Part shown: positions 9,411-64,000 of the stretch, piece after piece | Layout: every line of letters begins with the position of its first letter | Position numbering within the stretch: the stretch's first letter is position 1 | Notes under the pieces: model-generated | Databases searched by the model: none | What the model was told of the DNA's origin: nothing | The model's input: only the letters and a program-made list of their open reading frames with translations | Source: Schmidtea nova | Taxonomy: Eukaryota | Assembly (NCBI GenBank): GCA_044892505.1 | Contig: CM097882.1 | Location: 203,546,001 to 203,610,000, forward strand | Reading direction: 5' to 3' | Length of the DNA stretch: 64,000 bases | Position numbers and translations under genes: made by a program

Positions 9411-10241
9411 TATGTGTTTATAGCACTCAAATGGTCTAGCAACTAATGTCAACTATATTTACACTCACTTTTTTCAATTTCTCATTAAATTCCAGTAACA
9501 ATTATTTAATCATCAATTTATTATTATGTAAATTCATTAATTTTTTTAATCATAAATTGCTTTTTTCATTAATTAATAAATTTTACTCATTCTGTTTCTC
9601 AATTTACAAATTCTTTTTCTAAAATTAACATCTCAACAATTGGTCTAAAATATTTGTCGAGGTCTTTTCCATACCATTGCTAAATTTTAAACGTTCTTTT
9701 TAAAATCTTTATAAATCTCTTCAAAATCTCTTCGAAATTATTATTTTGATTAGTATGTGTCTCCATTATTTTTTATGTACTTCAATTTAAGGTCATGTTT
9801 TTCACTTAAAGTAACGTTGAAGACACTATAAAGTCACTAGGTAAGGTAAAGCTCTAATTAAGGACACTTGGATGAAAATTTAAGAGCAGGTGTATGGTTT
9901 GATGTCATTTTAGGGTCACAGGAGTAGGACAAAGTTGAATTAAGGTCATTTAGAGATTATTTTTTAGAGTTGATTTAAGGTCAAATAAACTAAGTCGTAT
10001 ATGAAAAAATATATAGTGCATTTTAAGGTTATTTGAAAAAAAAGTTCGTTTTACGGTCGAATATATATATTTATATATATTAAAAACTAAATAGAATATA
10101 TAACAAATATGTAAATGAACTCAAGTTTAAGTAAATTTTATGAAAATAATCAAGTTTTAATTTTTTCTAAAAACTTTTTCTAAAGTCAAAATAATAGTAA
10201 TTATTTTTATCATTATTAATATTATTAATATTTTTATTTAA

Positions 10242-10455
10242 CCTTCGATTTCTTTTTATTTAAATCAATAATTTTCATATTAATAATGGTATGACTGTAA
10301 ATCAAAAATCATTTGGTTGTTGGGTACACGTATTTTCAGAACAGTCCTTTTCAAATATGTACTTGATAAAGGCTGTGCCGAAATCTCGTGTACCTAACAA
10401 CCGAAATATTTTTTGATCTAGTCATACAATTATCAATATGAAAATTATTTATTTA
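10242..10455. mobile_element. Foldback MITE family copy
   Basis: Inner arms TCAAAAATCATTTGGTTGTTGGGTACACG...TCAA / TTGATAAAGG...GTACCTAACAACC...TTTGA; same family as 25925. Confidence 0.7.
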
Positions 10456-10578
10456 AATTATTTTTATTATTTTTTGATTATTATTTTTACAATTATTATT
10501 TTTATAATTATTCATATTTTATCATTATAATTTTTTAAATATTAATTTTATAATTATAATTTTTATTTTTATTGTTTT

Positions 10579-10689: not shown

Positions 10690-13600
10690 ATGGCGTCACA
10701 GCACAGATTAGAAGAAATAAACCTGCAATGCGCAGAAGAAGCCAAATGCTGGCTCCTAGCATTTTCAGCTATATCGAGATGCAACCTGTCAACATCAGAA
10801 GTCAGTGGCAAAATTTCGACAATCAATTTCATGGCCAGTTGCGGAATTAAAGCCTTAATGAAAACTCAGACAATTGTGGAACCCGAGAAGATTGAAGATA
10901 TGGAATTCGAGAAAATTCACAAAGCCGTGTTGCAATTACTTGAACCAAAAAGAAGACTGGTTATTGCGGAGAGAACAAAGTTCTATATGACAAAGCAAAT
11001 AACCAACGAATCAATAGCCGATTTTGTCAGAAGGCTAAAGACAAAGGCACGATTCTGTGTATTCGAGCAGTTAAAGAATGTAATCGACCCTACAGAGCAG
11101 ATGTTAAAAATAGCAGTATTGACAGGAATTCGGGACAAAGCAACACAAGAGAAGGTTCTCATACAATGTCAGGACAATTGCAAATCAATTAACGAGAGCC
11201 AGAACATTATTCAGAACATAGAACAAATACAATTATTCATCAAAGGCGAAGAAAACATTACAGAAAATGTAGGAGATAAAGAATTCAAGATAAACTTTTC
11301 AAAGCAAAAGTCAACCCATGAAACTGTTACAAACTGCAAGTTTTGCGGATCGAATCACAAGAAAAGACAATGTCCAGCATTCAATAAAGAATGCAAACTA
11401 TGAGGAAAAAGAAACCATCTGGCAAAAGTGTGCCGATCGACCCAGCTCTCAAAAGAAACTAAGGTAATGAATTATAAATCTGATAACGAGGAGGAGTGTG
11501 GCATATATCATGTCGAGACAGTAAATCAAGTTGGGGATAATATAGAGACGTACACAATCAAGTCAGTACCGGTAAAAATGCAATTGGATACAAAAGCCAC
11601 TGTATCAATAATATCGACATCAATATGGGAGTACTTAGACAAACCCAAACTAAAGAAAACAACGAAGACTCTAGAAGCATATAACGGTTATGTACTGAAA
11701 TCAACCCGTAAGTTCAACACTACCATCGAAACGAAATCAAAGATATATGCGATCGAGTTAATAGTAGTACAATCTACGAAAGAATTTGGCCTGTTGGGCC
11801 AGGACATTCTTTCGATCTTAAATGAAATGGAATTATCAATAAATCAAATCTCAAATGAAAAACACCCATCCGAAATTCTCCCGTCGATAAAGAGAATAAA
11901 AGCGTCAATGACACTAATCGAGAACTCGAAAGACGTATTTTGTCGAGCACGCCCGATACCCTTAGCATTAGAAAGCAAGGTGAACGATGAACTAACCCGA
12001 TTAGAGAAGATAAGAATAATTAGTCCATGCACAACCCCGGTTACAAATGCCTCGCCGGTGATTTAGATAAAGAAGAGAAATGGGGAGTTAAGAATGTGTG
12101 TAGACTTCAAGGTGCATGTAAATGAGAGAATCAAATTATGTGCCTACCCTCTCCCGAATATTGAGACCATCTTCGCCAAATTAAAGAATGCCAAGGTCTT
12201 TGCAAAGTTAGATTTAACTTCAGCTTACTGGCAAATCGAGCTAGACGAATAAGCAAAGAAATTATCGGTCATAAACACGAACAAAGGCGTGTACGAAGTA
12301 AACAGACTGCAGATTGGAATGTAGAATGCATCAACAATCTTCCAGAGCACAATGGAAAACATCCTAGCAGACATTAAAGGATTGTTAATTTACCAAGATG
12401 GCATCTTAATCTTTGCAGAAAACAACGAAGCGCTGAGAAAAAGATTGAATGCGGTCATATCAAGGCTAAAAGAAAAAAAGTCACAGTGAATGAAAGTAAG
12501 TCTATCCTACATTCAAAAGTGATTACGTTTTTAGGCTTCAAAATATCCGAAAAAGGAATCGAACCAGATGATAGAGTTGTATCGAAAATACGTGAGATAC
12601 AGACACTGGGAAACAGAAAAAAAGTGGAAAGCTTTGTCGGATTAATCAATTATTTCGGCAGATTTAATTCCACAATTTGCAATGAAAATACGTCCGATAA
12701 ACGAGTTAAGGAAATCAAAGTGTGGTGCCTTCCAATGGACCAAGGCATGCCAGTCGGCGTTTGAGGAATTAAAAAAGGAGATATCGAAGTCACCAATAGT
12801 TAAACCGTACGACCTAGAAAAAGAAGTAACATTAATTACAGATGCATCCAAAACCGCTATAGCTGCCATACTTACACAAGAGGGCTCACCAGTAATATAT
12901 GTATCGAGGACATTATCTCCGGCAGAAAGGAACTATTTCAACATAGAGTGCGAAGCATTAGCGATTGTATGGTCAGTGATTCGTCTGAAGCAGTTGGTCT
13001 TGGGAAGAAAATTTGACATCGAAACTGATCACAAACCACTGCAATATCTGTTTGGCAAGAAAAGTGCTATTCCCAGTACTACATCAGTAAGAGTGACGAA
13101 ATGGGCATTATTATTGATGCAGTATGATTATTCAATTTCATACCTAAGAGGGAAAGATATCCCACATGTCGATGCCCTGTCCCGAATGAAATATGTAAAA
13201 AAAGACATTAGAGATGAAGAAGAAGTAATAGCAGAGACTATCTTACATTCAATGACCGTCCAATTCAGAAAATGTATTTTAAATGAGGACAAAATCAGAG
13301 AAGAACTGAGCAAAGACAAATTCATGCAAAAAATCATGAAACGAGTGACAAATGGAAAATGGTCGTCGTGCTCCGAAGCCGAGAAGCCATTCGCAAGAGC
13401 ATCAAAAAGGTTGACTATTGAAGACAATATGCTATACTATGGGACACGAATTTTTATCCCTACAAGACTCAGGCGAGAAGTGTTTGAATTAGCGCACGAC
13501 AAAATACACTCTGGCACCAAGTCATCTACTAAAAGAATATCCATTTCCGCATGGTGGCCTGGTATGCACGGTGACATTGAAAAGAGAGTCAGTGAATGTT

Positions 13601-14400
13601 CAGTTTGCAACCGACTTCGCCCGTCAATTGTAAAAACAGTCGATAAGTGGCCTATAGCAAAACCATTTGAAAGAATACATATAGATTGGGCTCATGCTGC
13701 TGAAGTAGGAAACATTCTAATTATTGTTGATTCAGGCTCCGAATGGATAGAAGCATTCAGAACACGGAATCGCTTATCCGAGACAGTCATAGAATGTTTG
13801 CGAACAGTATTTTGTCGCTTTGGTGTTCGCAAAACATTAGTATCTGATAATGCCCCCGAATTCACGTCAAACGATGTTTTGAGATGGTTAAGCCTCCAAG
13901 GCATTCGGAAGATTGAAAGCCCACCATACTTCCCAATGGCGAACGGAAGTGCAGAGAGAGCTGTCCAGGTGATTAAGAAGGCCATACGGTGTTGGAAACT
14001 AACGCAAACTCACCAGCCCTTCACATCGTACTTACAAAAGGTACTATTCCACCATAGAGTAGGCACAGACTCAAAAGGCAAATCGCCGTCGGAAATAATA
14101 TTCGGACGACAAATAAGGGTGCCGATCTCCTCAAATTTCAAACATGGAGAAAAGATAACATACAAACAAACACCGGAAAAAGAATCCCAAGAAGCCATAT
14201 TCTTAATGCCGAAGGGAAACAACACCTCATGGATTATAAAACTGGGAGAAACAAACCTAACTTTAACAAGCAACAATCAAATTGTAGAAGATAGAAGCTC
14301 ACGGAATAAAAGTCCGATAGTAGACACCTTGGTCGTTGATACCAAGGGCAGACCCGACAGGAACAGAAAACCACCAGGCCGATTTGGGGACTGGATTTGA
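10690..14400 (+). pseudogene. gag-pol of the Mag-like element, with premature stops and frameshifts
   Basis: TGA at 11401 inside a knuckle, TAG at 12064, two more in-frame stops in RT (~12250, ~12322), frameshifts near 12480 and 12670; PR motif DTKA and RT motif YQDG instead of DTGA and YxDD. Confidence 0.9.
10691..10701 (+). promoter_or_regulatory. Primer binding site (TGGCGTCACAG) overlapping the gag start codon
   Basis: TGG complementary to tRNA CCA, 1 nt after the LTR; the ATG at 10690 reads ATG GCG TCA CAG; tRNA-Ser is my tentative guess for the primer. Confidence 0.75.
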
Positions 14401-25924: not shown

Positions 25925-26131
25925 ATTATCATAATTATCTTTTGATTTCACCTTTGATCTCTTTATTTAAATCAATAATTTTCATATTAATAATTGTATC
26001 ACTTTTATTTTCTTAATACACACTTAATAAAGGATTTGCCGCTATATCGTGTACTTAACAATCAAAAAATGTTTTTGATCTATAGTCATGCAATTATGAA
26101 AATAATTGATATAAATTAAAAGAGATCAAAG
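25925..26131. mobile_element. Foldback MITE family copy (CTTTGATCTC...TCAATAATTTTCATA arms)
   Basis: Imperfect ~35-bp inverted arms; related copies at 10242-10455, 54546-54813, 62187-62454 and a partial copy at 3196-3240. Confidence 0.75.
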
Positions 26132-52929: not shown

Positions 52930-53425
52930 ATGTACAAGTTAGAAAATCATGATTTGAGACTTCTTTATTTGTATGAGTGGAAATCGAAGAACAATTCAGT
53001 GTAGGTGGAGAGGAATATTAATAATGCTTTTGGGAGCGATACAGTTAATGAAAGAACTATTTGGCGTTGGTTTAAAAAATTTGATGACGGAGAAATTGAT
53101 CTCGAAAATATGCCTCGCGGTAGACCCAATATCAAGCTGTCGGAGGAAGATTTACGTGAAGTTGTTACTCAAAATTCAACAAAATCTGTTCAAGAACTTG
53201 CTATATATCTGTCTGTCTCAAAACCAACCGTTCAATCTTATTTAAAGACAATTAGTATGATCAAAAAGCTTCAAAGATAAGTCCCACATTAATTAACTGA
53301 ATTGCAGAAATTAAACCGATTACAAACTTGCTTATCTCTTCAAGCACGACATCGAAAGTCATCTTTTCTTAATAATATTATTACCTGCGATGAAAAATGG
53401 ATTCAATATGATAATCGTAAGTGGT
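52930..53425 (+). mobile_element. Mariner transposase N-terminal relic (HTHs to first catalytic D)
   Basis: NINNAFGSDTVNERTIWRWF, RGRP, *VPH*L, IITCDEKWIQYDN. Confidence 0.85.
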
Positions 53426-53720
53426 TAGGAGAACAATTGTGTAAACATCAATTTCCAAAAAACGGTTTAAAATGCTTGCCGCCATATAGCCCTTTTCTAA
53501 ACCCCATAGAAAAACTATTTAGTAAATTTAAAAAGGCTATCACACAAGATGTTGCGGCAACCTAGGGGTAGAGTACCATTGATTACAAAATTCGAATGGA
53601 ATCAGTCAAAAGGCTTGTGGAGGAAGAATAAGAAAAAGGATTATATTTTCATTTGAAAAATTATTATGATCATATAAAAAGGTTCTTCCCAAAGTCTTTA
53701 TTCAAAGAGGAAATCTTGGG
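53425..53720 (+). mobile_element. IS630/Tc1 (DD3xE, TRT-like) transposase C-terminal relic
   Basis: LPPYSPFLNPIEKLFSKFK followed by a YDHIKRFFPKSLFKEEI-type tail. Confidence 0.65.
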
Positions 53721-54545
53721 GGACATCTAAATATACACAGGTAATTTAATTGCTGAATAAAAATTATAATGACTTACCTTTTTCAGTATTTCATAAATAT
53801 CTAAAAAATATATTTATAAAATAAATAGATATTTAACTTAAAATATTAAATAAAATATGTAATTGAATTAAAATATGTTAAAACAGATTTAAAATATGAT
53901 TTAAAAATCATAATAAATAGTTATTACTCACCAACTGCCCGTATTAAATGTCTTTGTAGCCCTTAATTATAGACAATTGGTGTAGCATAAATGTTCAAAA
54001 TTCTAAGCTCAGATTTAACCAATATTAATGAAAAGCGTGACATTTACACATTACAGCAACTATACTATTATATTAATATTTCGTTTTCAATATAACATTA
54101 ATCATTTTTACTTTTAGAAATAAAGATGCAATTCAATTTCGAAGAACTTGTTAAATTGAACGTATTGTATGGTTATCCTCTATCATTATGGTTAAATGAT
54201 TTTAGTAAAAAAAACTGATATTTGATATTTTTATTTTTTTAATAACAATTGCCTGCTAATTCGTTTTTGTTTGATTAAATTAGTTATTAAAATATCAAAA
54301 TACCAAACTAATTGTTTTGCTTTAGAAAGCCGAGACAAATCAATCATACCCATTCATTTTTATGTAATTGACTGGTTCATTTCAAATAGCTACTGTTCAT
54401 TTCTTGTGAGAACAAGCCAATTAAAACAAAAAAAAATAATTATATTGGATATGCTGTTTAGATAAGTACTTTTGATAATTTATCAATGACGATGATTTTT
54501 AACTTAAATATTTTGATTATTCATATTTCTAAAAAGAAAAATAGT

Positions 54546-54813
54546 TTTTATATCAATAATTTTCAAAATTGTATGATTATAAATAAAAAAGTCTTTTTGG
54601 GTTTTATGGTTCTTAAGTACAACATATTTTGGCACAACCTTTATCAAGTGTGTATTTCTTTGATAACACAATTGATAAAAACTGCCGATATATCGTGTAC
54701 TTAACAACCAAAAAACGCAAAAAAACATTTTAATCTATAGTCATAAAATTATGAAAATTATTGATATAAATAAAGAGAGATCAAAGGTGAAACCAAAAGA
54801 TAATTATGATAAT
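54546..54813. mobile_element. Foldback MITE family copy (duplicated at 62187-62454)
   Basis: Shares GCCGATATATCGTGTACTTAAC and ATGAAAATTATTGATATAAAT...GAGATCAAAG with the other copies. Confidence 0.7.
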
Positions 54814-55275
54814 AGTTTTTTGTTTTTGAAAATCATTTAAATATTGAGTTGACCAGTAAATAATGTCGAAGATTTAGGTAAGATATACAAACAAGAATAC
54901 AAATCTGAATTGTTTTAATCGACAAAAAACACCTATTAAATAAACTTTAAGAAATATGACTCTAAACGCATTGAAAACAAATATTTTTAACAGTTTTATT
55001 CAATACAAATGTGGATCTGAGAAATAATCTGAATTAAGCAGTGGATCTAGATTGCTAAATTAACTTTTTGTATGTTCTAAAAACGAGTCACATCCCTTAA
55101 AATTCAACATATGCTAAACTCTCATTTTTCCAATACAATTTCTTTTGTCATTTACCTTTTTATATTTTGTCATTTTACTTTTTTATTGTTTTCTATAATA
55201 AAATACCAATGGAATTAAAAAAAATTGTTCTGTTTATTAACTGCATGGTTTTCTTCTCATTGGTGTACATTCTTT

Positions 55276-55306
55276 CAATCCCAGGATCCTGGGATTGCAA
55301 ACACTA
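55276..55306. repeat. 22-bp perfect palindrome CAATCCCAGGATCCTGGGATTG plus a probable hAT-type terminus (copy at 62917-62947)
   Basis: Perfect palindrome 55276-55297; the reverse strand reads TAGTGTTTGCAATCCC..., resembling hAT ends. Confidence 0.55.
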
Positions 55307-56164
55307 ACTTTGACTGACTGGTTGAAACTAAATAATTGGTGATTTTGTGTACCAATTCGACATTTCGGTACTGTAAACATTTTATTGATATTAAAACAAC
55401 CAAAATATGACTGATGTTTGATGTCAGTAAACCTTCAGTATTTCTTCTTTCATTGATTCTTTGCTACCCAACCGACTTTTACAATTTGAACTTGAAAAGA
55501 TCCATTCTTTTTATACATTGCCGTTACTTTCATCCTTGATTTTTCAGATAACTGAATCTAATTTCCTGGAAAAGAGTAGATAATCCGAAGAATAATTAGA
55601 CGCATCCAAGAGATTGTCATTAGCCATTGTCATTAATAATGTATCTAATTTGATATTTTTAAATTCCAAGAAAAAACTTTCGATATCTCCAGCAACAATA
55701 TTTATTTCGCTATTGATTTATTCAATATTGAGATAAATCCAAAAATAATGGATTAAAAAATGATATTAAAATATAATATAAGAAAGTCAAAATAATTAAG
55801 AAAATATCAATTAAATATACAAAATATTACCTTAAATTGGCAAGCCTTCAATTAAAATTAAAAAAGATTTAACTGTGAAAAGATAATAAAAACATGTCTA
55901 ATTTATTATTAAATATGAACAAAAATGTATAATGTTGAAGAAAACTAAGTAAGTGTTGAAAAATAATGAAATTCTGTAAGAATAACACTAGTAAATTATA
56001 TATGAAATTCGTACGCCATGTTTCCAAGTTACAGATTACCTGTAAGACTATGCATTTTCGAGTGATGTCATATCCAGTGTACCACGAATAATATTTAACA
56101 AATATTTCATGTATTTTATGTGTTAATATGGGTGATTTTAAGATATATTTTAGAGAATAAATAT

Positions 56165-56232
56165 GTATGTTTAGTAAAAACCCACATGTTTAGTGAAACA
56201 CATATATCTAGTGAAAACACACCTGTTTAGTA
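56165..56232 (+). repeat. ~20-bp minisatellite (GTTTAGTGAAAACACAT-like), duplicated at ~63806-63873
   Basis: Seen directly. Confidence 0.6.
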
Positions 56233-56657
56233 TATTTTATGATGATTTTAGTAAATAATATGGTTAGTGGTTATTTGAATACCAGTTAGCTAAAACTTAC
56301 TTTTCAGAATAAATCAATACGGTTTATATGTATAACTAATTACTAACACACAGGTTGTATAATAAAGAATGTGATTGATTGACATTTGTTTTCCCAAAAG
56401 TTTAGTATTATATAGATAATACACGTAGTTAAAGATTGAAAATGGTGGGTTTCAAATGTATGTGTTTATAAATAGACTGTATGACATGTAGTTGCATGAC
56501 TTATAGTTGTATTATAATTTCTTTATTATCCATGCGCATGAGCCGTAATAAAGTTGCAATACTTGTTCAATCAAATTGCAATACATGAGTTATACAAAAA
56601 CCTGCAGATCTTGGATAAATTTGTATAAATACTTGAAAATATATGATTATTTAGAAA

Positions 56658-57049
56658 ATGAAACAAGAAAAATTTATAATAAATTTGATTGACGGTCTTT
56701 TATCAAAAGAGAAAGATTATGATGAACTAATATCAAGTTTACAAATCCTGGTGTCCGATGCCGAAAAAATATTTCATTCCAATCCCATTTGAATCAAAAA
56801 TCAGTTAGAAGCAAGAAACATGCATTCAAAAGCGTGTTTTACTCGTTATTTGAGTGTGAAATGAATTGGTTACATGTCATTATGGCGTTCAATAATATAA
56901 AACAAATAATGGAAAATTCTGGTTCAAATTATGAAAATTATTTTCAATGGTCAGTACAGGTATATTATTATTTTTATATAATTATAATGTTAATATTATT
57001 TTAGATTATCCAAAGTGAAATATGTCCCTGGGTTCATGAAAATGGATAA
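56658..57049 (+). pseudogene. Divergent Bcl-2-fold gene or pseudogene (one frameshift, 45-nt intron, truncated BH2)
   Basis: MKQEKFIINLIDGLL (BH4-like), SLQILVSDAEKIF (BH3-like), -1 frameshift at ~56786, FKSVFYSLFECEMNWLHVIMAF (BH1-like), phase-0 GT-AG intron 56960-57004, IIQSEICPWVHENG* (BH2-like). Confidence 0.55.
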
Positions 57050-57479
57050 ATGAAAATGGATAGTTTTACAATAAAATCTATATTAATCTGTTAAAACCTT
57101 TAAATAATCAGTATCAAACAATAATACATTTATTTTCGATAAATTAAATTTACAATATCCATTTTTTCTGAAATAAATGTTAAAAAATGAATTAAAAACA
57201 ATCATGTTAAAAACAATGATGTTAAATTGGATATTTTAAAATATAAATGAAAAATAACTGGTATATATACTAATTATTTACACACACATTTATTTGTTAA
57301 TAAGATATTGTATGAAACTTTTGCAAATAAAAACCATCACAAAGGATGTTCTGTTACCAAGGTTCTGCTATTAGGGTTCTGTTAGAAATTTTCTAATACT
57401 AGAGTTCAACTACTGTGTTATTCATCACAATTCAAGTCTGAATTGTTGATATAAATCACTGTGATGCTTATTACGATTG

Positions 57480-57610
57480 TGTCATTTATGTGTAGTGCAC
57501 TTGTATTGAATATGTCGTGTATTGCTTATGTCATACACTTGTATTGCAAGTGTCATACCCTCGTATTGTAAATTTCATGTATTTTTATTGCTTGTATCAT
57601 ACAATTTTGG
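57480..57610 (+). repeat. ~22-bp minisatellite (TGTCATACACTTGTATTGCAAG-like, 4-5 degenerate units)
   Basis: Seen directly. Confidence 0.65.
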
Positions 57611-57879
57611 TATTCAAGAACATGTATATTTTCTATGATTTCCCTTGAATATTAATCAATTTTACAGAGTTTAATTATTTCAGAGTAAATTTAATACAAA
57701 CTAGTAAAAATATTGACAATTTCTGTATTTATTAATCAATGATTTTGGGAACTTCATGACTATACAAAATTGGTTAAAAGATTGTAAAATGGTATAATGA
57801 TTGTAAAATGGGTTAAATAACTGCAAATAGCAAAACTATGGTCATTATTTCCCTTGTATACTCAATTGTAGTAAGTTTA

Positions 57880-58336
57880 TCGAAATTTTTACAAGTGTAA
57901 AAATCATTAATTTTCAACTAAATACTCATTGGTTTTGTCATAATCAAACTTTAAGTCTTAGAGTCAATTTCTATAATGTGCAAAACAATCACAAAGTTGG
58001 TGTTCTCATCACAAAGTGAGTTTTCATATCAAAAGAATGGATCTGAATAAAACTTTAAAAGTTGAAATACCACAACGTAAAATATTCATAGAATACCCCA
58101 GCGTAATAACAATTGTGATTTATTTTTAAACGATTAACACGATCAATAAGAAATTATCTTGCAATGAAACAATATTTATCAACAACAGGAACACTGAATT
58201 TCATGATGCATTTCAATCAATTGAATTTATGGGTAATGAAAATTGGTTTATTGATATATCCATTCAAGGATATAAAATCGATCCAAAAGATTCAAGGTCT
58301 CCAATTTGGAAAATAAAAAGTGCTAGAATTGCATAG
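57880..58336 (+). pseudogene. Decayed ORF, tentatively a viral-type OB-fold ssDNA-binding protein
   Basis: Three frameshifted segments: ...NTHWF..., KTLKVEIPQR, and WFIDISIQGYKIDPKDSRSPIWKIKSARIA*. Confidence 0.3.
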
Positions 58337-59686
58337 ATAAAATCGCATAAATAACATTGATGTCGTAGATGTCGCATATATGTGTATTTATTGATAAATG
58401 TTGATAAATTCTCACTTGTTGTTTTTTGAATAATTGTTTTGTAAAATATTTTGTTTTTTGAAAAATTTTAAGTTTTTATGTTTTTGACCTCGTGGTGACC
58501 TAGGCCTCAATGTGTTCTTAAAATGGCCTTAAAATTTAACCTTAAAGCGACCTTAAAGCGACCTTAATTTGACCTTAAAAATTAAAAATGTTTGATGACT
58601 CGTCGTGTTTGTGCAAATAAAATTTGGGGATGAGTTACAAAAAAGTCTCCCCTGGGGGTCGCTTTATTTTGATTGGATGCACACATGAGATGACGTCTTA
58701 TGTCTTTGTTCTCCCGTCCACACTTACTTCTACTGACATCTTCCTCTAGCCTCTTTTGGATCCGTTGAGCCTTTGCCAATTCGGCTTGATGGTCGGGTTG
58801 TTTAGTGATACTGTAGAAAATAATAATATAAACGTTTTTAAAATGCACATTAATTTTCAGTCTCATAATAAATTCTATAAAAACGTCGAGTCAAAACTAT
58901 AATAAAATTCTTCACATCTTGTAAGGAATTTTTAGCAACTCAGATGTTATCAAATTAACACTAATTTTATTTGAAATCAACACATGGATTAATCAAAAAC
59001 TGGATTATTGTCTTTGGCAAACACATGCCGGATTCTTAGACTTTCTAGAAGGGATTTGTCTCGCAATGCGGAAATCGAAAATTTCGGCGACTTTCTCTCC
59101 TGTGAACTTGAGATCAGCCGCTTTTTACCCTTTTTTATTAATTTTTAAATATTATGTCATTTTAATTCAGAGCTTGTCTTATTTTTAACCTTTTTTCATT
59201 AAGTTTTAAAAATAATTGTAATGTTCTGTGGACACACCAATCTATCAAATAGTGTTTTGGAGTTTTTATTATTATGTTGATGTATCTCTTGTTTCCTTGT
59301 ATATTCTACACACCATAACAACTCTCGTTGGTAACGTTTGGATATATATTTTTAACTGTATATGTTTATTTGTGTCTGTTCGAATTAATAATTACCAATT
59401 GTGTTTTCTGTTCGCTGATGATAATATTACATAATTTGATTAGAGATGTGATTATCATTGAATGCTTTGTCTTATTTATATTTAATGTTATGTAATTAAT
59501 TAAAGTTATGTGAATTAATGTTATAAAAAAAATGTTAAAAATCTTGTAATCCTAAATATTTTATGAAGTGTTTAAAAGAAGTTGTTAAGCGGTTAACCCG
59601 CGCAATAATTAATAAACAAATAAAACATATTAGTTACAGCTGTTGTGTTTTTTAAAATGTTCAATTGCAAAATTATTTGTCGAATT

Positions 59687-60445
59687 ATGTCTACAGATTA
59701 TTCTAATTTATCAAATAGCAAATTCATAAAGGAAAATAAACTCCCATATCTTTTACCGAATTTTGATGAGAATGAAGAGTACGCTGACGATCTGTTAGCT
59801 GAAATTAAAAGAAATTTCATTTATTTAACTAAAGACAAGCAATTTTATGAAAATTTCAAGCTCAATTTAAAATTGCTTCAAAGGTATATAAATAATTATA
59901 GTCTCCGATTTACACTAGCAGACTATATAGCAATTATGAAGCTCCTATATGGGGTGCTTATTCAAAAAGATATCGATGTGATAATTACGATAAATGTTAT
60001 AACCGAATTAAAAATGCTTCTCAAAAAAACGAACTTTCTATCACGTGACGGTTTAACAATTGACTGGAATTCTTTGTATGATATTTGGTATCATTTTACC
60101 CATAGTTCTGTCGTTCACAATGGAATTATATTTACGCCAGAGCCGATAAAAGTCATTTCTGCAGAAATAATTCGATTATTTCCCAAGTTTTTTTTTGATA
60201 ACTCAACTATTATTCTATTATCCCTATCCCGTTGAGCTCGACAAACTCAATGGATTAAAAATCCTAAAAGTCTTTCTACCATCTTATTACAATAATCACA
60301 AGTCGTTCTTTGAATTGATTCGGCCACATTTGATAGGAATGCTGGAAGTGCCGACATGGATGAGCAACTGTGAACATGATTTGATGATTTTATTAGGCCG
60401 AGTTGCTACGACTTATGTCGGTTTGATGGATTGGACTCCTTTAAT
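59687..60445 (+). pseudogene. PSME4: Intronless N-terminal fragment of proteasome activator PA200/Blm10, frameshifted at ~60215
   Basis: NKLPY, LAEIK.N, RYI..Y..RF...DY....KLLY, LLKK..FLSRD.L.I.W..LYD, then KVFLP and LLGRVATTYVGLMDWTP follow the PSME4 N-terminus as I recall it, in order. Confidence 0.85.
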
Positions 60446-61010
60446 TAATAACCCAATGCTTTTGATACTTGGTGATCGTAGTTTGAAAAGCCTCACAAAT
60501 AATACTAATAAGCCCGACACGATAATTTTAAACTGTAATCCTGACGTATTTGCTTATTATACCTATTCTATGAACGATGTGACAGATGTATCACAATTAA
60601 AAATCGTCGTTACTGATATTAAAAAAATAACATTAAACATACGGTCTTATTCAAATTATAGAACTATGAATGAACTAGGATCATACAACTATATCAACGC
60701 AACCCAATTTATTGGACAAGAATTTTCTAATAAGAAAGCCTTCAGTGGAACACTCCCTTATGAGATCCATCTTGGGGGATTACCCGATGATTCCGATCGA
60801 CCTTTGGTTTGGCCTGGAATTCTTCTTACATTTCTATTTGGCATGAATGAGTGTATGGTAACAAATTTCTGTAAATTGAATACAGCCTATAAATATTCCG
60901 AAACAAAAGTACTATTAAATTTATTTATACGATTATATAAAATTAAAAGCGAGGAAATAAAACTAAAATTGATGAATCGGCAACTGCACCAAAATAATGT
61001 CATTCTTTAG
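60446..61010 (+). other. In-frame non-PSME4 extension with LamG/LNS-like motifs
   Basis: EIHLGGLPDDSDRPLVWPGILLTFLFGMNEC resembles the LGGLP...VW..LL...GC end of neurexin-type LNS domains. Confidence 0.4.
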
Positions 61011-61084
61011 TCTTTGTAAAATTCTACTCGTTTTTTACTATTTAAATTTAACCACGTGTTTTTTACCTTTTTTCTTAAATTTTT

Positions 61085-61800
61085 ATTTAAAATTTCAATT
61101 CAAAATTACAAATCTGAGAGTAGAAAATCCAGTTTAAAAAGATTTCAAAATATTTTACTTGTTTAAAAGATTTTCACGTGCTTTTATTTACCATTAAAAT
61201 TTATATTTCAGTTCAAAAATACCAGAGCTCTTTTCTTGCTCTAGAAAAATCTGAGAAGTGAAAATCCTATTCAAAATTCCCTAACCAAAAATTCAATACA
61301 AATTATCGGAGTCCGTTTCTGCCTTAGAAAAATATAGGAAGAGAACAAAATATACAAAAATACCAGACCAAAAGATCGAATTCAAAAATACCAGACCAAA
61401 ATTCCCCATACAAAAAACCTATCGTCCCATTTCGCCAGAGAAAAGGTCTTGGAGTTTAAAATACTGTTTAAAGTATCAGTGCCAAAATTCCCTGTAGAAA
61501 AGACCAAACCAAAAATCCCTGTTCAAAATACTAAGACCAAAATTCCAATACAATTTATCAGAGTACTTTTTTGCACGAGAATTATATGAGAGTAAAAAAT
61601 CCATGTTTAAAAATACCTGACCGAAATTCCCTATAGAAAATATTGAGACCAAATAATCGTATTCAAAAATCGTACAAAAAACCCAGAGTCCCTTTTTTAC
61701 CGGAGTTGAAAATCCTGTAGAAAATTTCCAGACCATGAATTTTCTGTCTAACTCACGTTCAAAAGATCGAACAAAAGTTCACTATACAAAAAATACCAGC
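61085..61800 (+). repeat. Degenerate minisatellite array (core ~AAAATTCCCTATACAAAAATACCAGACC)
   Basis: Recurring AAAATACCAGACC and AAAATTCC motifs, with longer recurring blocks. Confidence 0.8.
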
Positions 61801-62101
61801 TCAAAATGTTGTGGCCCGCTAATTCGCTTTTTCTAAGGGGAGATGGGGGTTGAGTTAGAGCGCCACTACCTACCTACTGACAATCAAAATATTACAACTC
61901 AATTCAAATGAAAATTTCAATAAAAATAAAGAAAAATTAGTAAATAAATATAATTAATAACAAATGAGGTTTCATATAATATTCAACAGGCATGACAATT
62001 CACAGCCTTTAAAAGATTTTCTGACATTTCATTCTTCGATAATAAATCGGTTAATTTCAGCTCTGAGGATCCTTGAATTCCAAAAATCTTTGAGTTGCAA
62101 T

Positions 62102-64000
62102 GATAAGTACTTTTGATAATTTATCAATGACGATGATTTTTAACTTAAATATTTTGATTATTCATATTTCTAAAAAGAAAAATAGTTTTTATATCAATAA
62201 TTTTCAAAATTGTATGATTATAAATAAAAAAGTCTTTTTGGGTTTTATGGTTCTTAAGTACAACATATTTTGGCACAACCTTTATCAAGTGTGTATTTCT
62301 TTGATAACACAATTGATAAAAACTGCCGATATATCGTGTACTTAACAACCAAAAAACGCAAAAAAACATTTTAATCTATAGTCATAAAATTATGAAAATT
62401 ATTGATATAAATAAAGAGAGATCAAAGGTGAAACCAAAAGATAATTATGATAATAGTTTTTTGTTTTTGAAAATCATTTAAATATTGAGTTGACCAGTAA
62501 ATAATGTCGAAGATTTAGGTAAGATATACAAACAAGAATACAAATCTGAATTGTTTTAATCGACAAAAAACACCTATTAAATAAACTTTAAGAAATATGA
62601 CTCTAAACGCATTGAAAACAAATATTTTTAACAGTTTTATTCAATACAAATGTGGATCTGAGAAATAATCTGAATTAAGCAGTGGATCTAGATTGCTAAA
62701 TTAACTTTTTGTATGTTCTAAAAACGAGTCACATCCCTTAAAATTCAACATATGCTAAACTCTCATTTTTCCAATACAATTTCTTTTGTCATTTACCTTT
62801 TTATATTTTGTCATTTTACTTTTTTATTGTTTTCTATAATAAAATACCAATGGAATTAAAAAAAATTGTTCTGTTTATTAACTGCATGGTTTTCTTCTCA
62901 TTGGTGTACATTCTTTCAATCCCAGGATCCTGGGATTGCAAACACTAACTTTGACTGACTGGTTGAAACTAAATAATTGGTGATTTTGTGTACCAATTCG
63001 ACATTTCGGTACTGTAAACATTTTATTGATATTAAAACAACCAAAATATGACTGATGTTTGATGTCAGTAAACCTTCAGTATTTCTTCTTTCATTGATTC
63101 TTTGCTACCCAACCGACTTTTACAATTTGAACTTGAAAAGATCCATTCTTTTTATACATTGCCGTTACTTTCATCCTTGATTTTTCAGATAACTGAATCT
63201 AATTTCCTGGAAAAGAGTAGATAATCCGAAGAATAATTAGACGCATCCAAGAGATTGTCATTAGCCATTGTCATTAATAATGTATCTAATTTGATATTTT
63301 TAAATTCCAAGAAAAAACTTTCGATATCTCCAGCAACAATATTTATTTCGCTATTGATTTATTCAATATTGAGATAAATCCAAAAATAATGGATTAAAAA
63401 ATGATATTAAAATATAATATAAGAAAGTCAAAATAATTAAGAAAATATCAATTAAATATACAAAATATTACCTTAAATTGGCAAGCCTTCAATTAAAATT
63501 AAAAAAGATTTAACTGTGAAAAGATAATAAAAACATGTCTAATTTATTATTAAATATGAACAAAAATGTATAATGTTGAAGAAAACTAAGTAAGTGTTGA
63601 AAAATAATGAAATTCTGTAAGAATAACACTAGTAAATTATATATGAAATTCGTACGCCATGTTTCCAAGTTACAGATTACCTGTAAGACTATGCATTTTC
63701 GAGTGATGTCATATCCAGTGTACCACGAATAATATTTAACAAATATTTCATGTATTTTATGTGTTAATATGGGTGATTTTAAGATATATTTTAGAGAATA
63801 AATATGTATGTTTAGTAAAAACCCACATGTTTAGTGAAACACATATATCTAGTGAAAACACACCTGTTTAGTATATTTTATGATGATTTTAGTAAATAAT
63901 ATGGTTAGTGGTTATTTGAATACCAGTTAGCTAAAACTTACTTTTCAGAATAAATCAATACGGTTTATATGTATAACTAATTACTAACACACAGGTTGTA
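62102..64000 (+). repeat. Copy 2 of the direct duplication (runs off the window end)
   Basis: Same as 54461-56359. Confidence 0.95.

Follow-up and report, generated by a model that had tools for sequence, protein, structure and literature searches.

Spliced host-gene starts in the long terminal repeats of a Ty3/Gypsy family in Schmidtea nova

A solo long terminal repeat containing the start of a host mRNA

The stretch of DNA analysed here (the window) comprises 64,000 nucleotides of the Schmidtea nova genome (assembly GCA_044892505.1, contig CM097882.1, positions 203,546,001 to 203,610,000 of the forward strand). Towards its right end, within a 7.6-kb unit that is repeated in tandem, lies a solo long terminal repeat (LTR) of a Ty3/Gypsy retrotransposon family, and this LTR contains the spliced 5' part of a host mRNA, that of PSME4 (PA200). 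The parts of the LTR are listed below in window positions; cargo denotes the host-derived sequence.

59212..59216, plus strand: left 5-bp target-site duplication, ATAAT
59217..60993, plus strand: solo LTR of the Gypsy family; starts TGTAAT and ends at an internal CAAA, so that the final 37 bp of its hairpin are missing
59217..59630, plus strand: constant 5' part of the LTR, probably U3-like; contains an A-rich tract and a small, conserved GC hairpin (59589); common to the cargo types
59631..59651, plus strand: residue of an older cargo's 5' end (DUF5586-like gene), matching the parent gene in locus L137 at its upstream end
59652..60439, plus strand: spliced 5' part of the host PSME4/PA200 mRNA, with 35 nt of 5' untranslated region (UTR), an ATG at 59687 and about 260 codons
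60440..60967, plus strand: older nested modules (earlier labelled 'LamG') common to other LTR types; nested sharing, with a ratio of nonsynonymous to synonymous differences (pN/pS, simple counts) of 0.98 between types
60968..60993, plus strand: terminal hairpin, 5' arm; its ATG at 60972 is in frame with gag in full elements
60994..60998, plus strand: right 5-bp target-site duplication, ATAAT

The parent PSME4 gene was found as seven exon blocks at G000:C2:311759033-311761851. A 26-bp deletion near 60209 disrupts the PSME4 frame in the first copy of the tandem unit; in the second the frame is open, and the LTR there has an open frame of 449 amino acids. Dozens of copies of the 1.8-kb piece occur elsewhere in the genome at 93-96% identity. 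Their ends are sharp, 18 of 20 PSME4-type loci show 5-bp target duplications, and full elements (L027, L028 and L050) have LTRs of the window type around gag-pol. Another reading, in which the 1.9-kb unit is a small element that carries genes and has a single LTR of 420 bp on one side, is ruled out, since pairs 7 kb apart flank gag-pol. A homologue search returned no longer proteins with the PSME4 fusion. The solo LTRs are likely products of recombination between LTRs, and the one in the window would have been doubled afterwards by a local duplication.

Size and structure of the family

Exact end-pattern searches of the genome gave 393 and 419 matches (controls 0), which indicates a family of about 400 or more LTRs; the first pattern misses short-LTR groups with a variant start, and three loci that the end patterns did not parse (L138, L141 and L143) were excluded. 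A search for the junction of LTR and primer site gave 112 matches, again with none in the controls. LTR pairs 7 kb apart flank, in Gypsy order, a primer site, gag, reverse transcriptase, RNase H, integrase and a purine tract. Pfam supported reverse transcriptase (2e-22), RNase H (1e-26) and integrase (7e-15); the protease was recognised by motif only, and gag gave a weak match to DUF7041, below the cut-off. The best solved relative in a PDB search was Ty3 (E 1e-65). The primer-binding site, TGGTGTCAGAAG, which we take to be that of tRNA-Leu, follows the 5' LTR, and a run of G precedes the 3' LTR. Elements are about 9 kb long with an internal region of about 5 kb, and gag-pol is kept.

The LTRs start with TG; at the other end the target duplication follows CAAA and not CA. 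A sample of 62 LTR starts (60 loci) included 45 complete LTRs, 37 of them with target duplications, and an exact 5-bp duplication flanked eight of nine LTR pairs. All nine pairs have the same cargo on both sides. Since the two LTRs of a pair are only 0.13-1.5% apart, the family is young.

Further features of the family were noted in passing. All complete LTRs have a strong terminal hairpin, -35.9 kcal/mol for 105 nt including the primer site at L027:2885-2990. Four loci (L114, L158, L063 and L118) are cargo-free or nearly so, with LTRs of 267, 343, 433 and 557-643 bp; they may be the ancestral state or deletion products. Chains of elements that share LTRs, at a spacing of about 6.6 kb, were seen at G000:C2:87125269-87138570, C1:2998181-3004800, C1:176887397-176894022 and C2:40341085-40341843, as was a short 367-bp triplication of the LTR/primer-site junction. 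At G000:C2:117929912 (L138) an old LTR module is contained in an open frame of 1639 amino acids. The motif TAGTTA was considered as the element's own initiator and rejected: a captured host gene has it at its 5' end and the short-LTR groups lack it, and for this reason we leave the transcription start unplaced.

Host cargo in the LTRs

The 45 complete LTRs form 16 groups, in which a constant 5' part and a constant last 120 bp enclose a variable middle. This middle is common to groups in nested steps from the 3' side, and at least 10 different protein starts open it. Pfam matches to the cargo included MED23 (3e-31) and ankyrin repeats (3e-10) and, below the cut-off, DUF5586 (1e-5) and a Ras-binding domain (0.008). 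We sought the parents of four cargos (PSME4, MED23, DUF5586-like and Raf-like) and found a multi-exon gene for each. Cargo and parent exons are about 92-99% identical and the introns are gone: 16 GT-AG introns were traced base by base as cleanly removed, and four more from block alignments. All four cargos are in sense orientation, truncated at the 3' end, and devoid of a poly(A) tail and of an inner target duplication. The PSME4, MED23 and DUF5586-like cargos include the 5' UTR and start codon. Traced cargos begin at one fixed place just past the conserved hairpin, where older sequence is replaced and not interrupted.

The LTR in the window can be derived one join at a time. The first 20 bases of its cargo are those of the DUF5586-like gene, to which PSME4 is joined at a 10-nt match; the 3' end of PSME4 in turn joins the ankyrin-linked module of the DUF5586-type LTR at an 8-nt match. 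Further joins are those of MED23 with the Raf-like cargo (10 nt), of the DUF5586-like cargo with the ankyrin cargo (7 nt) and of the Raf-like cargo with an older UTR (9 nt). Thus five joins with known partners have microhomologies of 7-10 nt; random pairs of positions share 7 or more at a frequency of 0.001. The three 3' joins keep the codon phase.

Other searches were negative. No parent of the 'LamG' modules was found among the 150 scored of 871 candidates; the 150 look like LTR copies. Another cargo fusion had no match in a profile-free search of 1.84 billion representatives, nor in PDB, and a membrane-protein-like cargo, which to our eye resembles adenylate cyclase, had no PDB match. We also noted a young group (L119, L144, L153, L155, L156, L159 and L160) whose members are 0.3-1% apart, lack indels and have an unbroken frame of 909 amino acids into gag; the searches made assigned no origin to its cargo.

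The cargo frame continues into gag

Of 17 elements scored among 21 loci examined, 12 have the LTR-end frame in phase with the gag methionine. In a second sample, chosen by place, this is so in all 14 scored (of 20, six lacking the gag motif used), which makes 26 of 31 combined. The leader of 133 codons before gag has no stop in the gag frame, compared with 7-9 and 4-6 in the other frames (six copies). Among 87 LTRs, a start could be assigned in 81, 46 of which are in frame by length; 20 of the 87, from 11 of 19 groups, are fully open from the start to the LTR end. Natural copies contain unbroken frames of 856, 909, 1008 and 1010 amino acids from the cargo start to the gag stop. Frame breaks in the four groups examined are mostly private or at homopolymer runs, and none falls at a module join.

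By simple counts without correction for transition bias, pN/pS was 0.15 for gag, 0.37 for the leader and 0.98 for the old shared module between groups; between cargo and parent it was 0.54-0.66 for private and 0.40-0.59 for shared changes (small numbers), which we read as no lower for the shared ones. Seven stops occurred in cargo among private changes and none among shared or intermediate ones. Cargo amino acids thus look unconstrained, and those of gag constrained. The pattern appears to fit selection on an open frame and not on a host peptide, while leaving room for weak constraint.

Origin of the cargo

We think it quite probable that the LTRs of this Ty3/Gypsy family came to hold spliced, sense host-gene starts, in one frame with gag, by template switching during reverse transcription. 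During synthesis of the first (strong-stop) minus-strand DNA, the enzyme would leave the 5' RNA of the element at a short match, jump onto a co-packaged host mRNA, copy it to or near its 5' end (the cap) and then jump back near the start of the element. The new piece would replace the 5' part of the old cargo, so producing the nested pattern, and normal LTR replication would copy the new cargo into both LTRs. Template switching in this first stretch of minus-strand synthesis predicts just such features: sense orientation, loss of introns, truncation at the 3' end, a landing place that is fixed on the 5' side, and replacement in nested steps. The element RNA would then likely begin with a host UTR and start codon, and scanning ribosomes would reach gag only via an in-frame join. 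Selection would act on the open frame, not the host peptide, and joins in frame with gag would persist because only they would let Gag be made.

Several observations weigh against this account. Four of the at least 10 cargo starts have been traced to parents, and one of these, the Raf-like cargo, begins about 28 codons inside its gene and not at the 5' end; it uses an upstream ATG from older sequence. By length, 35 of the 81 LTRs with an assigned start are out of frame. Fully open copies numbered 0 of 13 in one sampled group and 0 of 5 in another, and broken copies, too, may therefore be mobilised in trans. The terminal hairpin and the leader contain in-frame ATGs, and cargo-free LTRs of 267 and 343 bp flank internal regions, one of them with an in-frame hairpin ATG; Gag need not, therefore, start in the cargo. 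Moreover, since the copies are related, the counts, including the 26 of 31, are not independent.

Two other explanations have to be weighed. The captured host peptides or UTRs might be useful to the element, as a Gag N-terminus or in translation, stability, localisation or escape from silencing, such that the turnover of cargo is adaptive. It speaks for this that very different cargos have each reached tens of copies, that three of the four traced cargos bring with them a host UTR and its start codon, and that the young group at 0.3-1% divergence keeps the 909-amino-acid fusion in all seven copies compared. However, the cargo is without amino-acid constraint beyond the neutral baseline, the cargos are functionally unrelated and cut mid-protein, and cargo-free LTRs exist, and we regard an adaptive role as unlikely. 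We give far less credence to entry at the DNA level, whereby cDNA made by a long interspersed nuclear element (LINE) was inserted or gene-converted into an LTR and the element spread it afterwards. LINE products are 5'-truncated and have tails, whereas every traced cargo is sense, 3'-truncated and free of both a poly(A) tail and an inner target duplication; cargo also replaces older sequence, with one fixed start just past the conserved hairpin. Nevertheless, microhomology is a mark of DNA repair as well, and the available part of PMC10886601 gives a precedent in the Cassandra LTR, thought to stem from insertion of a short interspersed nuclear element into an LTR.

The 7.6-kb unit as a probable tandem duplication

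The window LTR lies in a repeat that the original prediction had described as at least 1899 bp long, apparently identical and recurring at offset 7641. Self-comparison of the window confirmed this: 54461-56359 equals 62102-64000, with 100% identity across 1899 bp. Two origins had been offered, a cargo element with very long direct termini or a recent tandem duplication of 7.6 kb, to be told apart by sequence beyond the window. We added 58 kb of neighbouring sequence (six adjoining stretches), and the identity was found to span the entire unit, from 54461-62101 (copy 1, 7641 bp) to 62102-69768 in extended coordinates (copy 2, 7667 bp). The choice thus falls on tandem duplication, and the roughly 5.7 kb between the repeats, previously read as cargo between termini, is nothing of the kind because the identity is not confined to the ends.

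The copies differ by two substitutions and one 26-bp indel (about 0.03% divergence), the deletion being in copy 1 and accompanied by a short filler. Their ends have a 2-bp GA overlap in common, the join is exact, and unique sequence begins right after copy 2. The extended stretch contains no third copy within the 58 kb past the window, no target duplication was found at the ends of the unit, and genome searches with both halves (best 40 candidates scored each) gave no dispersed copy of the whole unit other than its tandem partner. The unit and its other parts are as follows.

54461..62101, plus strand: tandem duplication copy 1, 7641 bp; whole-unit match to copy 2 alone, among the best 40 candidates per genome search
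62102..64000, plus strand: start of tandem duplication copy 2, which runs 5768 bp past the window (G000:C1:203608102-203615768)
54547..54814, no strand assigned: short imperfect palindrome, a putative dispersed repeat resembling a miniature inverted-repeat transposable element (MITE-like); self-inverted match, with relatives at 10214-10471, 25925-26131 and in fetched loci
55306..55741, minus strand: decayed C-terminal piece of a protein-primed family-B polymerase (presumed from its motifs) of a Polinton-ended fold-back family; 81% identity to the end of a 1230-amino-acid frame in L093-L096, with ends and a 6-bp target duplication in L135/L136
56380..57945, no strand assigned: member of an older dispersed repeat family (earlier 'Bcl-2-like'); many copies at 78-87%
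58142..58735, no strand assigned: member of another dispersed repeat family (earlier 'SSB-like'); many copies at 77-94%
61136..61725, no strand assigned: degenerate 27-28-bp array in a further dispersed repeat; Tandem Repeats Finder scores up to 88, and 70-77% matches in L016 and L098

Each piece of the unit belongs to its own family, with other neighbours elsewhere; the unit is a patchwork of several independent dispersed repeats side by side, not one capturing element. The search for copies with shared ends, proposed earlier, yields for the whole unit the tandem partner alone, among the best 40 candidates scored each time, and dispersed copies for its pieces. The labels first given to the gene fragments fared unequally. 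PSME4 stands (PA200, E 3e-16). The Bcl-2-like piece had no match in Pfam or PDB, the SSB-like piece had no PDB match and one below-threshold Pfam match to an unrelated family, and the LamG piece (60440-60967) had no supporting match in Pfam or PDB. The minisatellite blocks are present, as weak arrays with Tandem Repeats Finder scores of 50-88. The unit does lack a transposase, as stated, although the solo LTR and the protein-primed polymerase fragment inside it had gone unrecognised. The idea of gene capture survives for the PSME4 piece, by an RNA route inside an LTR, but fails for the unit as a single Helitron or Pack-TIR (terminal inverted repeat) element.

That last reading, in which very long direct termini bound a single non-autonomous cargo element (Helitron or Pack-TIR type), has the presence of several gene-like pieces in its favour. 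Such elements should give dispersed copies with shared ends, and their captured pieces keep introns; here there is a tandem partner only, and the PSME4 piece is spliced. Since, in addition, the whole unit is doubled, its ends lack a target duplication and its pieces are separate families with different neighbours, we consider this reading negligible. By contrast, a recent head-to-tail tandem duplication of repeat debris is probably real and not an artefact. An assembly duplicate, that is, two haplotypes or a mis-join laid in tandem, is possible, though we doubt it; the LTR family would be unaffected. Evidence for an assembly duplicate comes from run X1, where one contig of 570 nt matches 61741-62103, departs from the stretch right at the junction and goes on elsewhere, with no visible branch to copy 2; the junction 62101/62102 is spanned by none of the listed X1 pieces, most pieces not being among those listed. 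Against it, the copies differ by the deletion with filler and by two substitutions, and the join between them is exact with its 2-bp overlap. X1 also differs from both copies at four places in 546 bp and therefore probably represents another individual or haplotype, and the divergence between the copies (0.03%) is far smaller than that of X1 from either of them. The X1 depth of 35-45 at the duplication, without a baseline outside, reads as neither one nor two copies. The tandem duplication is in itself ordinary, and a repair or replication slip at the 2-bp overlap would be its simplest origin.

Several observations concern neighbouring repeats. The elements in L093-L096, with ends in L129-L136 (e.g. 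G000:C1:393533330-393543950), start AGTAGTG, an end type that we take to be Polinton-like, and one of four pairs examined has a 6-bp target duplication. In L093-L096 the polymerase arm is present twice, as an inverted repeat whose halves, 3-5 kb or longer and 99.3-99.97% identical, enclose a short centre that varies. The best 40 matches of a genome search included at least 11 pairs of this inverted kind, which are possibly fold-back products of hairpin replication. At 52930-53500 the window contains a decayed transposase frame, recognised by eye and presumably mariner/Tc1-like, and at 13501-14397 an open frame of 299 amino acids that is presumably integrase-like and from another LTR element.

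Implications

Known LTR capture destroys pol and yields passengers, whereas the capture described here sits in the LTR and spares the machinery. Exon shuffling thereby becomes serial and amplified, as a capture in the LTR is copied to both ends and into every solo LTR. With parent genes, intermediates and cargo-free LTRs in one genome, both strong-stop switching and selection for an open frame become directly testable, by sequence and RNA. For annotation there is a warning: tens of intron-free 'paralogues' of PSME4, MED23 and the Raf-like gene are here LTRs.

A bolder proposal, which we offer as speculative, starts from the same sequence comparisons. The lineage might keep swapping the 5' end of its RNA for a host UTR, start codon and first exons, as a DNA-level counterpart of cap-snatching, make Gag as a host fusion and gain from the borrowed leader. 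It would leave hundreds of solo LTRs, each with a promoter and an open chimeric frame of several genes into flanking DNA, which could continually supply new genes as well as antisense small RNAs directed at core genes, PSME4, MED23 and Raf among them.

Comparison with known systems

Coding sequence that overlaps an LTR is familiar: the GAG of Ty1 starts inside the 5' LTR, and sag of MMTV and nef of HIV lie in LTRs. Those are fixed genes of the element, however, and the sequences described here are serially captured starts of host mRNAs. In LTR-mediated retroposition in animals, as far as the accessible text of Tan et al. (2016, PMC5131818) goes, the retrocopy replaces part of the internal open reading frames (ORFs), which was so for all 15 fly cases, and yields a non-autonomous product. 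Our family resembles those cases, and maize Bs1 cited there, in its spliced partial host mRNAs, in the microsimilarity at joins, in combining several genes and in the further spread of the chimera. Thus all four cargos are intron-free mRNA copies, and five joins have 7-10 nt in common and no poly(A) tail. The replacement of internal ORFs is not seen: both LTRs contain the cargo, the element retains gag-pol, capture recurs at its 5' end and the cargo frame runs into gag.

Host-derived sequence inside LTRs is also a feature of Cassandra, Helenus and Ajax, which, in the part of PMC10886601 available, are miniature non-autonomous elements with a fixed small-RNA promoter (5S rRNA or tRNA) in their LTRs. 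Unlike these TRIMp3 elements, our family has protein-coding pieces of many genes, exchanged serially, in elements of about 9 kb with gag-pol; no tRNA was found in the window. The giant Gypsy elements Burro/GYPSM1, from what the accessible portion of PMC6431247 gives, have ankyrin and BCL2-like domains in frame with the polyprotein, and host-like domains in the polyprotein frame of a Gypsy element are thus common to both. Burro elements exceed 30 kb and have fixed internal domains and env homology, whereas the present family is about 9 kb, which leaves no space for env, and the cargo in its LTRs is variable and recent, with about 92-99% identity to the parents.

No report of serial capture of protein-coding mRNA inside LTRs was found in the partial literature covered (most subscription journals, Repbase and the supplements of Tan 2016 lie outside it), and the parts of PMC11410931 and PMC3485330 seen contain nothing on host cargo borne by LTRs. 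With its structure well supported and its expression predicted, the family appears to be a variant of LTR-mediated retroposition in an arrangement that we did not find in this literature.

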